The translations under genes and the position numbers were made by a program. A stretch of DNA of 64,000 bases, taken from NCBI RefSeq assembly GCF_003018255.1, contig NZ_CP027440.1; one strand, 5' to 3'. The notes under the pieces were generated by a model. The model saw nothing but the letters and a program-made list of their open reading frames with translations, had not been told where the DNA came from and ran no database searches. Source of the DNA: Escherichia coli (GTDB taxonomy: Bacteria; Pseudomonadota; Gammaproteobacteria; Enterobacterales; Enterobacteriaceae). Within the stretch, counting starts at the first letter, position 1, and each line of letters starts with the position of its first letter. This document shows, piece after piece, positions 45,667 through 49,034 of this stretch.

Positions 45667-48285
45667 TCATTGTTGAGCCAAAGCCTGATCCGATGGTTGT
45701 GCCGTTTCGCTCCGCTCCGGGCGGCGCGGAATAAACGATACAACCCAGGAAACCAGAGAAGTCAGCACACGGAATATGCCCTTCACCGAAGAAGGCGCAA
45801 ACTCCGCCAGATGGCGGTAGCCACGGAAGCCGAGCTTCAGAATATCCAGCAGACTTTCCAGCGGCTTATCTTCCGGATAGCTGTCCTGCCAGAGCGCCCA
45901 TGTATCCGCACGGGCAAACGTACACTGCACAAAATCGATATGTTGCTGGGTGGTGAGCGGCATTAATTTCAACCCAACTTCATTACCCATCACGCGCGCC
46001 ACCTGGGTCGGGAAGACGTATTCCTGCTGACCGCGTTTAAGCAACAGATTCACTTTCTGCCCTTCCAGAATCTGCGCCTGACCGTTGATCTTGATCCCCA
46101 AACCACCGTCGGAGAAATCCTGAACGGTACACGAGAAGAGGTGACCATCTTCGCGGGCAATTGCTGCGGGCATCGTCATCTCCACGCGGTGCGATCGGCG
46201 TACCTGTTTGCTTTCTACCGATACTGCGACTGCGCCGCCGAGAATAATCAGGTTGTAGAATACCCACACCATACTGACGACCACGGTGAGCATCTCAGTT
46301 GGCGGACCATAGAAGTAGCGCCAGATCCCAACCGCTACGCCCACCAGGTTGAGCAGAACAAGGAAGATGTAGGGCCGCGAGATCACCCAGTCGACGTACT
46401 CTTCTTCCACCAGTCCACCTTTGGCGGTGACGTTAAATTTGCCTTTGTGCGGGTTAATCAGCGCCACCAGCGTCGGTGGTGCGATATACCACGCCAGCAC
46501 TGTTTCGTAGATTTCACTCCAGAAAGAGTGGCGATATTTGCCCTGGATCTTCGAGTTAGTCAGGCTGGCATGGATCATATGCGGTAGCACGAACAGGGCG
46601 ATCATCAACGCTGGCGCGTAGATGATGTAGGCATGAAACAGCAGGAACGCCAGCGGCGCAGTCAGGAAGATCAGCCGTGGAATGCCCGACAAGAAATGGA
46701 ACATGGCGTTGACATAGCACAGCCGCTGAGCAAACTTCAGCCCTTTACCGGTGAGTGGGTTATCGAGACGGAAGATTTGCACCATCCCGCGCGCCCAGCG
46801 AATACGCTGACCGATATGCGCCGAGAGACTTTCGGTCGCCAGCCCCGCTGCCTGCGGAATACGCATATACGCTGAGGTGTAGCCACGACGGTGCAGACGC
46901 AGAGAAGTGTGCGCATCTTCGGTTACCGTTTCGACAGCAATTCCGCCAATCTCATCCAGCGGCTTACGGCGAATCACCGCACATGAACCGCAGAAGAAAG
47001 TGGCATCCCACATATCATTGCCGTCCTGCACCAGACCATAAAACAGCGTGCCTTCGTTCGGCGTTTTACGAAAACGCCCCAGGTTGCGTTCAAACGGATC
47101 CGGCGAGAAGAAGTGGTGCGGCGTCTGCATCATCGCCAGCTGTTTCTCTTTCAGGAACCAGCCCATGGTCATTTGCAGGAACGATCGCGTTGGTACGTGG
47201 TCGCAGTCGAATATCGACACGAACTCGCCTTTGGCATATTTCAGCGCATTGTTGATGTTGCCCGCTTTCGCATGTTCATGAGTGGTACGGGCGATATATT
47301 TCACCCCCACGTTTTGCGCAAACTGGCGAAACTCTTCCCTGCCGCCGTCATCGAGGATCCAGATGTTCAGCTTGTCTTTCGGCCAGTCGATACCCAGCGA
47401 AGCGTAAATGGTATTTTTCACCACGTTGAGATCTTCGTTGTAAGTCGGGACAAAGATATCCACCGACGGCCACAGCGACATATCTTTCGGCAATGGCACC
47501 GGCTGACGATTCAGAGGCCATACGACCTGGAAATAGCCGAGCACCAGCACAATCCACGCGTACGTTTCGGCGAACAGCAGAATAAGCCCGCACACCAGGC
47601 TGACCGGATCGTCCCAGTTCAGCGTAGAGGTGTAGCGCCACCAGATATAACGGCAAGAAACGGTCAGCGACAGCACAATCAACATTAGCGCCGAGAAGCG
47701 CCCCGGCATCCGCCGTACGATCAGCGCTACACCCCACAGCAGCATCAGGAAAATAAACTGCGCCAGCGGGTTAAACGGCTGGGTAACGCAGATTAACGCC
47801 AGAATCAGCGAGAAGGTGACGATGATACCGAGGATCAACCGCCGCGCCCCGGCGCTCAAATGGCCGAGTTCTTTTTTCTCATCGAGATGCTGTGTTTTAT
47901 GGCTAACGCGCTCAGGCAGCTCGTTCATCCATTGATGGTAACGTCCACGAATATTTTGTAGACCTGAAAATGCCCGCCTGCGCGGTTTCGGCGTTTCTTT
48001 GCGCGATGCACCGATCAGTAACCAGCATGTTTGAATAAGATAACGGACCGGGTCCAGCGGACGCGGACGCGAGGCGTTGATATGCGGATACAGGTTTTTA
48101 TGTTCTGCGCGAATACGCTGCCAGCGCGGGTGCTCCAGCGGAATAAAAATCCAGGCCAGGATCATCCAGAAACAGCCAAGCGTCGCGCTGAAAGCCGACG
48201 CGCCGTGACGACGATAATCGCGATAACGCCCAATAAGCCGTGCGTTGACCGGCGGGATAAGCAACCACCGGGTCAGGATACTCAT
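45667..48285 (-). CDS. bcsA: Cellulose synthase catalytic subunit (GT2 + PilZ) BcsA
   Basis: ORF 45667..48333; start at MSILTRWLLIPPVNARL… gives 872 aa. Glycosyltransferase-2 core and C-terminal PilZ domain; start overlaps the bcsQ stop (ATGA). Confidence 0.9.
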   Translation of the reverse strand: MSILTRWLLIPPVNARLIGRYRDYRRHGASAFSATLGCFWMILAWIFIPLEHPRWQRIRAEHKNLYPHINASRPRPLDPVRYLIQTCWLLIGASRKETPKPRRRAFSGLQNIRGRYHQWMNELPERVSHKTQHLDEKKELGHLSAGARRLILGIIVTFSLILALICVTQPFNPLAQFIFLMLLWGVALIVRRMPGRFSALMLIVLSLTVSCRYIWWRYTSTLNWDDPVSLVCGLILLFAETYAWIVLVLGYFQVVWPLNRQPVPLPKDMSLWPSVDIFVPTYNEDLNVVKNTIYASLGIDWPKDKLNIWILDDGGREEFRQFAQNVGVKYIARTTHEHAKAGNINNALKYAKGEFVSIFDCDHVPTRSFLQMTMGWFLKEKQLAMMQTPHHFFSPDPFERNLGRFRKTPNEGTLFYGLVQDGNDMWDATFFCGSCAVIRRKPLDEIGGIAVETVTEDAHTSLRLHRRGYTSAYMRIPQAAGLATESLSAHIGQRIRWARGMVQIFRLDNPLTGKGLKFAQRLCYVNAMFHFLSGIPRLIFLTAPLAFLLFHAYIIYAPALMIALFVLPHMIHASLTNSKIQGKYRHSFWSEIYETVLAWYIAPPTLVALINPHKGKFNVTAKGGLVEEEYVDWVISRPYIFLVLLNLVGVAVGIWRYFYGPPTEMLTVVVSMVWVFYNLIILGGAVAVSVESKQVRRSHRVEMTMPAAIAREDGHLFSCTVQDFSDGGLGIKINGQAQILEGQKVNLLLKRGQQEYVFPTQVARVMGNEVGLKLMPLTTQQHIDFVQCTFARADTWALWQDSYPEDKPLESLLDILKLGFRGYRHLAEFAPSSVKGIFRVLTSLVSWVVSFIPRRPERSETAQPSDQALAQQ

Positions 48286-49034
48286 GATGCACTCCCGACT
48301 GGCGTTTTCAGCCCGGAATAGTTCAACAGGCACCAGTTCGCCAGCGTCAGTATTTCTTCAGCCGCCAGCGCATCACTGCGAAATTCACCGACTGGTTGCT
48401 TAGCTGCCAGACATTCAGCCATCGCTTCATCACGATGAATGAGCATCGGCAGCAATCGGCGCTGGCTTTGCAACCAAAGCTGGTAAATATCGTCCTGAAC
48501 CTGGCTGCCAATACGGAAGTCATTAATCAAAATATGTGCACCATCCGGCAGCGCTTGCTGATGCAGTCGGATATGGCAGTTGGCATCCACATTGACGATT
48601 GCCAGCGAGTGATCGCACAAACTCAGCAGCTGGTGGGTTATCTGCGAGGCATCACGCGGTAAGTCAATTAAAATCCACTGGTAACGCCCGCTGGCTTTTA
48701 GTTGCTGTAAGCCGGTGCAAATATCGCTCAGCCGGGTTTGCCAGTGCTGTGGATTTTCTTGTTCTTCAATGGATAACTGACCAAAAGGCAGCAAATCGAG
48801 CTGCGAGGTATAGCGCAACCCGGCGTCACGCCAGTCCTGGCCATCCAGCATAGCTCTGGCCCAACCCTGACGGTGGGTAAAATCAACGTTAAATGACAGG
48901 CGCAACAAGTTGTCCGGGCAGGCATCGACCACCAGGACATTTTCTCCCAACATTTGTAATGACCAGGCTAATGCGGCGGTGATGGTTGTTGTCCCCACGC
49001 CTCCCCGAACCCCCTGCAATCCCAGTACGGCCAT
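48282..49034 (-). CDS. bcsQ: Cellulose biosynthesis protein BcsQ (MinD/ParA-like ATPase), intact
   Basis: 250 aa, MAVLGLQGVRGGVGTTTITAALAWSL…, with a deviant Walker A; uninterrupted reading frame. Confidence 0.9.
   Translation of the reverse strand: MAVLGLQGVRGGVGTTTITAALAWSLQMLGENVLVVDACPDNLLRLSFNVDFTHRQGWARAMLDGQDWRDAGLRYTSQLDLLPFGQLSIEEQENPQHWQTRLSDICTGLQQLKASGRYQWILIDLPRDASQITHQLLSLCDHSLAIVNVDANCHIRLHQQALPDGAHILINDFRIGSQVQDDIYQLWLQSQRRLLPMLIHRDEAMAECLAAKQPVGEFRSDALAAEEILTLANWCLLNYSGLKTPVGSAS

Follow-up and report, generated by a model that had tools for sequence, protein, structure and literature searches.

The open reading frame at 48282-49034 on the minus strand is, judged by its sequence, wild-type bcsQ (yhjQ), the second gene of bcsRQABZC in a chuA-positive, non-K-12 Escherichia coli, an already known and ordinary state of this gene. 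Taken as a whole, the locus is best explained by a wild-type bcsQ whose ATP-binding product would act as part of BcsRQ in secretion and whose translation is likely coupled to that of bcsA, an account in which we place high confidence. Positions refer to the window, meaning the whole stretch of 64,000 nucleotides that was analysed. From its sequence we infer, rather than observe, the coupling itself, the expression of the locus and the production of cellulose by the window strain. The features that carry the identification of bcsQ are as follows.

48282-49034, minus strand: bcsQ coding sequence, 250 codons plus TGA, starting with ATG and uninterrupted (list of open reading frames and translation)
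48984-49013, minus strand: deviant Walker A motif or P-loop, residues 8-17, GVRGGVGTTT (R10, T16, T17), read directly
49017-49019, minus strand: bcsQ codon 6, TTG (Leu), which is TAG in K-12 (nucleotide 17, T>A), compared base by base with NC_000913 b3534

The identity and intactness of the gene are directly supported. Its product scores 540.3 bits with NF007460, an NCBIfam BcsQ equivalog (cut-off 399, E 5e-163, aligned over positions 1-250 of 250), and 295.8 bits against a second equivalog, TIGR03371 (cut-off 157.85), and in a search of the PDB it matches the BcsQ chains of 6YBU and 6YAR end to end (E 2e-167). The gene is identical at the nucleotide level to bcsQ in at least 30 complete E. 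coli genomes, with every one of the matching genomes listed annotating it as bcsQ, and its product agrees at every amino acid with the protein annotated for bcsQ in JNE23-011 (WP_000279544.1). The gene order, transferred from JNE23-011 and K-12, is bcsR-bcsQ-bcsA-bcsB-bcsZ-bcsC with bcsEFG divergent, and bcsQ lies between bcsR and bcsA as in the E. coli-type (type II) bcs cluster, such that a score above the equivalog cut-off over the full model, the residues of the protein and its gene context all identify it as BcsQ. Opposite-strand open reading frames lying inside bcsQ, such as those at 48396-48662 and 48599-48853 on the plus strand, are mechanical open reading frames.

The functional residues can likewise be read directly, with all nine published nucleotide-pocket residues (R10, T16, T17, C39, D41, D150, N152, R156 and N171) present in the translation. 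Their roles are described in PMC7840130, where N152 and R156 act in trans, N171 contacts the adenine and position 39 is Cys or Ser. The protein resembles MinD and ParA (SIMIBI class), has a deviant Walker A motif and would bind ATP. By analogy with the 98%-identical protein of E. coli 1094, for which ATP binding, the BcsR2Q2 complex and the need for it in secretion have been described (PMC7840130; PMC11470070), it would form an ATP-sandwiched BcsR2Q2 complex, which would dock on the PilZ and glycosyltransferase modules of BcsA, held by BcsE, and which the published structural work suggests would be absolutely required for cellulose secretion.

The difference from K-12 and the frequency of the two alleles are also matters of direct observation. 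The K-12 MG1655 gene (b3534) bears a pseudogene annotation, its codon 6 being TAG, a null allele that is absent from the window, where 49019-49017 read TTG; this description of the K-12 allele combines the sequence comparison made here with secondary citations, which report that repair of the stop base in K-12 W3110 yields the cellulose-proficient strain AR3110 (PMC7397504; PMC5944007). Both the uninterrupted 250-residue frame that the preliminary description had reported, confirmed by the list of open reading frames, the translation and the NF007460 and PDB matches, and the early premature stop that it ascribed to K-12 bcsQ are therefore borne out. Apart from the stop base, 15 of the 17 nucleotide differences between the window and K-12 genes are synonymous, which indicates that bcsQ is under purifying selection. 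Of 5,426 complete E. coli genomes, 4,884 (about 90%) carry the TTG allele and 349 the TAG allele, and among the matches listed, K-12 and laboratory strains predominate in the latter group. An intact bcsQ is thus the norm in E. coli and does not distinguish the window strain; it shows that, at this locus, the strain does not derive from K-12, and it is of little importance alone.

The consequences of this genotype for cellulose depend on the remainder of the locus, which is composed of the following genes.

45667-48285, minus strand: bcsA, cellulose synthase catalytic subunit, 872 codons, intact (NF008558, 1793.9 bits, full length)
49046-49234, minus strand: bcsR (yhjR), 62 codons, intact (NF040717, 75.8 bits against a cut-off of 46)
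38731-45656, minus strand: bcsB (43317-45656), bcsZ (42204-43310) and bcsC (38731-42222), intact, transferred from the JNE23-011 annotation
49507-51266, plus strand: bcsE (49507-51078) and bcsF (51075-51266), intact, in the divergent operon
51263-52943, plus strand: bcsG, interrupted by one inserted base near 52027 (GGGTTGATG becoming GGATTAGATG), from alignment to JNE23-011 and K-12

On the synthase side, BcsA differs from its K-12 counterpart at two amino acids and BcsR at one, the bcsR stop precedes the start of bcsQ by 11 nt, and bcsB, bcsZ and bcsC show no internal stops or length changes relative to JNE23-011 and few differences from K-12. Because bcsR, bcsA, bcsB, bcsZ and bcsC are intact and BcsA contains both its catalytic motifs (QRIRW, TED and DCD) and its PilZ motifs (RRSHR and DGGLG), a synthase-competent genotype is a fair and supported reading, and the earlier suggestion that the strain is probably cellulose-competent at the synthase level stands as a statement about genotype, bcsQ being intact as well. 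The sole lesion falls in the gene for the pEtN transferase, the synthase side being wild type, and bcsG is the only disrupted gene among 50 checked against JNE23-011. The insertion divides it into a first open reading frame (51263-52063) encoding 255 native amino acids plus 11, and a second (52029-52943) encoding native residues 256-559, the split lying exactly before native Met256.

The cellulose phenotype of the window strain is uncertain. Cellulose does not follow automatically from intact bcs genes, since BL21 and H10407 carry no truncated bcs gene and yet produce no detectable cellulose (PMC5944007), and the key regulators csgD, dgcC and rpoS lie outside the window. The proposal in the preliminary description that cellulose could be made but not pEtN-modified agrees with a UTI89 bcsG deletion, which still produces cellulosic material in unmodified form (PMC6685106), and with the BcsG S278A variant, which makes unmodified cellulose (PMC11379886); it is, however, only one of the published outcomes, a non-polar bcsG deletion in AR3110 giving a curli-only morphology (PMC4287979). 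That AR3110 result points to a strain that is cellulose-negative or nearly so, whether because the bcsG lesion destabilises BcsA or blocks matrix assembly, or because regulators outside the window are defective, in which case the intact bcsQ would be without phenotypic consequence. Such an outcome is also favoured by the effect of BcsG on BcsA integrity and its essential role in secretion in some strains (PMC11470070), by the background Congo-red signal of S278A, by the example of BL21 and H10407, and by the frequent, convergent bcs loss-of-function mutations of pathogenic lineages (PMC10881479). It is countered by the unmodified material of the UTI89 mutant, by intact pdeK and pdeH, and by the truncated BcsG itself, which keeps the five-helix membrane domain that is the part contacting BcsA (PMC11470070). 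On balance we put a cellulose-negative strain slightly short of an even call. Whichever outcome holds, any cellulose defect is to be sought in bcsG or in the regulators outside the window. A Calcofluor or Congo-red comparison against a K-12 control would probably come out negative on account of bcsG and would therefore not test bcsQ; the usual dye assays would not separate the absence of cellulose from unmodified cellulose, and bcsG mutants appear cellulose-negative in both dye and colony assays.

The second part of our account concerns the junction between bcsQ and bcsA, where two features are of interest.

48282-48285, minus strand: ATGA, in which the bcsA start ATG (48285-48283) overlaps the bcsQ stop TGA (48284-48282) by 4 nt, from the sequence
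48292-48296, minus strand: GGGAG, Shine-Dalgarno-like motif for bcsA, inside the bcsQ 3' end and 6 nt before the ATG

Conservation of this overlap is directly observed. On the minus strand the junction reads ...GCA TCA TGA GTA TCC..., the same ATGA overlap is annotated in K-12 and JNE23-011, and the stop of bcsQ overlaps the start of bcsA in 34 of 34 related loci (30 with ATGA, two with GTGA and two in which the overlap extends to 7 and 14 nt). These loci range from Escherichia to Pseudomonas and Zobellella, with protein identity falling as low as 36-43%, the bcsA start being less certain in Pseudomonas owing to in-frame GTG or ATG candidates 27-30 nt upstream. The pair has two of the features expected of a coupled pair, namely a stop overlapping the downstream start and a junction conserved in divergent relatives, again with less certainty for the Pseudomonas starts. 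Given the ATGA overlap, a ribosome terminating on bcsQ would sit on the bcsA start codon, and the overlap most likely couples the translation of bcsA to that of bcsQ, which would help to set subunit ratios and would explain how the K-12 codon-6 stop could lower BcsA besides abolishing BcsQ.

Alternatively, the overlap could reflect only compact packing, bcsA being translated independently by way of its Shine-Dalgarno sequence; the defect in K-12 would then arise solely from the absent BcsQ protein. The well-spaced GGGAG motif, 6 nt upstream of the bcsA ATG, argues against obligatory coupling in that it could support independent initiation, and it, or the one-base-different GGAG, is found at the same position in most Escherichia, Citrobacter, Enterobacter and Lelliottia loci. 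A hairpin predicted in Escherichia only, pairing the GGGAG motif with bcsA codons 2-5, was considered as support for coupling through sequestration of the motif and rejected, as its fold is no better than that of shuffled sequences (z = -1.45) and its conservation does not extend to other genera, a result that also favours independent translation of bcsA. Independent work, moreover, has established that secretion requires BcsQ (PMC7840130), and PMC5944007 allows for both loss of BcsQ and polarity as the action of the K-12 stop. That all 34 loci keep the overlap, even where protein identity has dropped to about 40%, is nevertheless hard to explain without selection on the junction, and BcsQ associates physically with BcsA within a single complex, a typical setting for coupled translation. 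We therefore consider compact packing rather unlikely.

Translational coupling is thus the most likely reading of the overlap and its conservation, which support it without proving it; of the earlier statement that bcsQ is translationally coupled to bcsA, the overlap is real and the coupling stays an interpretation, bcsA having a GGGAG motif of its own. A term search of a broad review found no mention of coupling. The conserved ATGA junction offers a small lead, open to experiment, on the mode of action of the nonsense mutation in K-12. A bolder combination would hold both that coupling is obligatory or that BcsQ assembles co-translationally with the synthase, the classic K-12 cellulose defect then lying partly in BcsA translation, and that the window strain has lost its modifying enzyme by natural mutation while its synthase stays intact; as a pair, we regard these propositions as doubtful. 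Consensus scans of positions 48000-49600 returned three promoter-like sites (about 2.2 expected) and five terminator-like sites (about 1.7 expected), a functional terminator within the coding regions being unlikely.

A further reading attributes the bcsG frameshift to a sequencing or assembly error, in which case the locus would be fully wild type, pEtN-cellulose would be normal and the contrast between bcsQ and bcsG would disappear. A 55-mer spanning the insertion has no match in the 5,426 complete genomes, although nearby polymorphisms could hide carriers of the insertion alone, and the lesion consists of one extra base adjoining a substitution, both of which could be taken as signs of error. 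The insertion lies outside any homopolymer run, however, the 49 other genes compared with JNE23-011 are without frameshifts or internal stops, so that sequence quality appears high, and private bcs loss-of-function is common in nature, with 27 independent events in ST95 alone (PMC10881479). An error is accordingly improbable in our view. If the lesion is real, it might add a further, independently arisen example to the convergent attenuation of pEtN-cellulose that has been reported in invasive lineages. Finally, a chance open frame or mis-called gene in place of bcsQ is ruled out, as the product matches BcsQ in NCBIfam and the PDB over its full length (E 1e-163 to 1e-167) and the gene is annotated as bcsQ elsewhere; a random open frame of 250 codons has an estimated probability of ~(61/64)^250, or ~6e-6.

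The practical value of these observations is as a sanity check when a biofilm matrix phenotype is predicted from sequence, and they can be set beside several known systems. The K-12 pseudogene of MG1655 and W3110 occupies the same locus with the same 753-nt length and ATGA overlap and is 97.6% identical to the window gene in nucleotides, the proteins differing by S107T and Y218F (K-12 to window) besides codon 6. The Q178* allele of ST95 affects the same gene, whereas the window retains Q178 and has no nonsense codon; together with nonsense mutations in the ST10 complex, it shows that bcsQ has been repeatedly inactivated in nature (PMC10881479).

The closest relative of known structure is BcsQ of E. 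coli 1094 (PDB 6YBU, 6YAR, 6YAY, 6YB3 and 6YB5; cryo-EM 9FNN, 9FP0 and 9FP2), which has the same length of 250 amino acids, the same position in the operon and identical ATP-pocket residues throughout. The window protein carries four substitutions in 250 residues relative to it (T107 for S, D172 for N, F218 for Y and A249 for K), none at a residue with a reported role. Similarity to the SIMIBI-class NTPases MinD, ParA and Get3 is weak and covers the P-loop region (MinD, PDB 4V02, E 3.5e-6), and the NCBIfam ParA and MinD matches, at 24-36 bits, fall far below the family cut-offs (minD_bact 23.8 against 212.9; ParA_partition 36.5 against 180), which places BcsQ outside MinD and ParA proper. In GVRGGVGTTT both lysines of the canonical KGGxGK[ST] Walker A motif are absent, R10 and T16 standing in their place, Cys39 replaces the water-activating Asp, and the partner is BcsR rather than MinE. 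On these sequence comparisons, the relation of BcsQ to MinD/ParA is one at the level of the superfamily only. The alpha-beta-alpha fold and ATP-sandwich dimer are common to BcsQ, MinD, ParA and Get3 (PMC7840130).

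The bcsQ gene of the window is intact, and is read on the minus strand as a single frame both in the ORF list and on translation.

48282..49034, minus strand: bcsQ, one uninterrupted ORF of 250 codons, from ATG to a TGA stop

At its 3' end the coding strand reads ...GGGAGTGCATCATGAGTATCCTG..., where the ATGA at 48282-48285 is common to the TGA stop and the ATG of the next gene, whose frame opens MSILTRWLLIPPVNA and extends for 872 codons to 45667. The preliminary description of an uninterrupted 250-aa protein whose stop overlaps the bcsA start is thus borne out exactly by ORF list, translation and strand reading. 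By every testable criterion the gene belongs to the BcsQ family: its product scores 540.3 bits against the NCBIfam equivalog NF007460 (curated cut-off 399, all 250 positions aligned) and 295.8 bits against TIGR03371 (cut-off 157.85), and aligns end-to-end, with four substitutions, with the solved E. coli BcsQ chains 6YBU, 6YAR and 6YBB (E ~2e-167). The ORFs on either side encode BcsR (NF040717, 75.8 bits, cut-off 46) and BcsA (NF008558, 1793.9 bits, cut-off 992). The best match to the 20-kb region is JNE23-011, the closest complete genome (99.5% identity), annotated in the order pdeK-bcsC-bcsZ-bcsB-bcsA-bcsQ-bcsR, divergent from bcsE-bcsF-bcsG; its BcsQ (WP_000279544.1) has zero amino-acid differences from that of the window, and the bcsQ DNA is 100% identical in at least 30 complete genomes.

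According to structural work on BcsRQ (PMC7840130), BcsQ is a SIMIBI-class NTPase whose Walker A motif is deviant, the trans lysine being replaced by R10, itself salt-bridged to D150; T16 and T17 touch the triphosphate, C39 substitutes for the water-activating aspartate with D41 close by, N152 and R156 work in trans, and the adenine is held by N171. All nine of these pocket residues are found in the window translation, in which Q178, the site of a nonsense mutation in certain ST95 strains (PMC10881479), is also unbroken.

The premature K-12 stop named in the preliminary description is confirmed both by comparison with NC_000913 and in the literature. There bcsQ (b3534) is an annotated pseudogene, also of 753 nt and with the same 4-nt overlap with bcsA. 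Compared base by base, the two genes have 18 differences: nt 17 is T in the window and A in K-12, making codon 6 TTG (Leu) rather than TAG, and there are 15 synonymous differences and two amino-acid changes (S107T and Y218F), a ratio expected of purifying selection on a working gene. The K-12 change (TTG>TAG, 17 T>A) has been reversed in W3110, yielding the cellulose-proficient AR3110 (PMC5944007, PMC7397504, PMC4287979). Alleles were counted with 55-mers that have nt 17 at their centre, which forces any 28-base megablast seed to include the SNP. TAG was found in 349 of 5,426 complete E. coli genomes, every match being 100% identical, with the carriers among the matches listed being mostly K-12 derivatives and laboratory strains (e.g. 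MG1655, DH1, C600, MC4100, TG1, J53, ET12567); TTG was found in 4,884 of the same genomes, 5,285 of which have bcsQ as a whole. The window thus carries the ancestral, majority allele, and an intact bcsQ is not unusual in E. coli.

For the rest of the locus, K-12 provides a functional yardstick, since bcsQ codon 6 is the sole difference between AR3110 and W3110 and the other K-12 Bcs proteins must therefore work.

Residues differing from K-12 in the other proteins of the cellulose locus
BcsA: 2
BcsB: 7
BcsZ: 6
BcsC: 10, plus a 6-residue duplication
BcsR: 1
BcsE: 9
BcsF: 0
PdeK: 3

BcsA retains its DCD, TED and QRIRW motifs as well as the PilZ motifs RRSHR and DGGLG. With so few differences and these motifs kept, the earlier suggestion of cellulose competence at the synthase level is fair for the genotype, the operon being undisrupted. 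The BcsC duplication, a tandem repeat of six residues at ~40669-40704 (minus strand) that gives 1163 aa rather than the 1157 of K-12, is also present in JNE23-011.

When 50 annotated JNE23-011 genes were transferred to the window, a frameshift or internal stop was found in bcsG alone.

51263-52943, plus strand: bcsG, frame shifted by a 1-base insertion near 52027
51263-52063: bcsG ORF1, 255 native residues plus 11 foreign
52029-52943: bcsG ORF2, residues 256-559, starting at the native Met256

The lesion is an extra A beside a G>A change (GGGTTGATG becoming GGATTAGATG), and the break falls exactly before the Met256 codon. On the published domain layout (PMC11379886, PMC11470070), ORF1 takes in the five transmembrane helices and the linker and extends ~40 residues into the catalytic domain, ending before the catalytic Ser278, while ORF2 holds Ser278 and is without membrane anchor or signal sequence. 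An active periplasmic transferase is to be expected from neither piece. A 55-mer spanning the lesion had no match in the 5,426 complete genomes, so that the lesion is either private to this sequence or an error in it; its position outside any homopolymer run, and the absence of other broken genes from the window, favour a real mutation.

The preliminary description suggested that cellulose could be made but left unmodified, and this is the most likely outcome on our analysis, if not a safe one, since published outcomes of BcsG loss are mixed. UTI89 delta-bcsG makes an unmodified cellulosic polymer (PMC6685106), and BcsG S278A gives unmodified cellulose with a Congo-red signal at background only (PMC11379886), while AR3110 with a non-polar bcsG deletion resembles a curli-only strain (PMC4287979) and BcsG is reported to affect BcsA integrity and, in some strains, to be indispensable for secretion (PMC11470070). 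Furthermore, cellulose is undetectable in BL21 and H10407, which have no truncated bcs gene (PMC5944007), and the main regulators csgD, dgcC and rpoS lie outside the window. In a Calcofluor or Congo-red assay with K-12 as the control, the result would probably be negative regardless of the state of bcsQ.

The 4-nt bcsQ/bcsA overlap is identical in K-12 and JNE23-011. As a test for selection, we compared the junction at 34 loci encoding BcsQ relatives of other species, with identity down to 36%, from Escherichia, Citrobacter, Enterobacter, Lelliottia, Buttiauxella, Cedecea, Pluralibacter, Franconibacter, Entomohabitans, Enterobacillus, Pseudomonas and Zobellella.

The bcsQ/bcsA junction at the 34 loci
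ATGA: 30/34
GTGA: 2/34
Longer overlap: 2/34 (7 nt in Zobellella, 14 nt in Franconibacter)

A bcsA start overlapping the end of bcsQ could be assigned at all 34, though with less certainty in Pseudomonas, given alternative in-frame GTG or ATG codons 27-30 nt upstream. Most enteric loci also have, at the same place, the following motif or a near variant of it (e.g. GGAG).

48292-48296, minus strand: GGGAG motif, 6 nt before the bcsA ATG

So strongly conserved an overlap fits translational coupling of bcsA to bcsQ, which is plausible because the two proteins are partners in one complex (PMC11470070). For the coupling previously proposed, the overlap is real and proves to be conserved, and dependence of bcsA translation on that of bcsQ is putative; a term search of a broad review found no mention of translational coupling. 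The K-12 stop may act by loss of BcsQ or by polarity (PMC5944007), and the conserved junction, in itself a minor observation, suggests a simple experiment on how the K-12 defect works. A hairpin predicted at 48246-48345 (minus strand), in which the bcsA Shine-Dalgarno GGGAG pairs with bcsA codons 2-5 and the AUG lies in the loop, was given no weight as support, its fold being no better than that of shuffled sequence (z = -1.45); among the 34 loci it occurs in Escherichia only and is not conserved in other genera. Elsewhere in the locus, bcsZ and bcsC overlap by 19 nt (42204-42222), bcsE and bcsF by 4 nt (51075-51078) and bcsF and bcsG by 4 nt (51263-51266), with gaps of 11 nt for bcsR/bcsQ, 10 nt for bcsA/bcsB and 6 nt for bcsB/bcsZ. 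In the relative set, bcsQ of the species representative Enterobacter chuandaensis 090028 (L023:1501-2260) carries one additional base at nt 82 (CAGCTTTTTAGG, where E. asburiae has CAG-TTATTAGG) and consequently a stop at codon 31, either an early frameshift independent of that of K-12 or an assembly error.

Around the operon, a tandem array between bcsG and yhjV (52946-54796; 3.8 copies of a 483-bp unit, 96% matches) contains four ORFs for ldr toxins and four matches to the rdlD antisense RNA (53186, 53669, 54152, 54635); K-12 has one ldrD/rdlD copy at this site, whereas JNE23-011 has four. Identity to JNE23-011 across 13466-52943 is mosaic, in blocks: the chu genes, hde, mdtE, yhjE-yhjG, dctA-pdeK-bcsC-bcsZ, bcsQ and bcsF form 100%-identical stretches, and mdtF, gadW, treF, rcdB, pdeH, bcsB, bcsA and bcsG are at 96-99%, a pattern that recombination would produce. 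The chu/shu haem-uptake locus (1-8255; chuS partial, chuA, chuT, W, X, Y, U, V) is inserted beside yhiD, with the shuA/chuA 5'-UTR thermoregulator at 2360-2391; being chuA-positive, the strain is of neither phylogroup A nor B1, and hence not K-12-like. Rfam matches above the gathering score (GadY between gadX and gadW, ES205, RtT plus a tRNA, annotated as tRNA-Pro in JNE23-011, naRNA4 and ES036; together at 17914-18026, 12063-12134, 62774-63193 and 60496-60538) are all expected for this E. coli region.

Overall, the finding of an intact bcsQ is correct and ordinary: the protein, its structure and its essentiality are already described, as are the nonsense allele of K-12 and the repair of that allele. 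BcsQ is related to MinD/ParA at the superfamily level only, with scores far under the cut-offs of those families.
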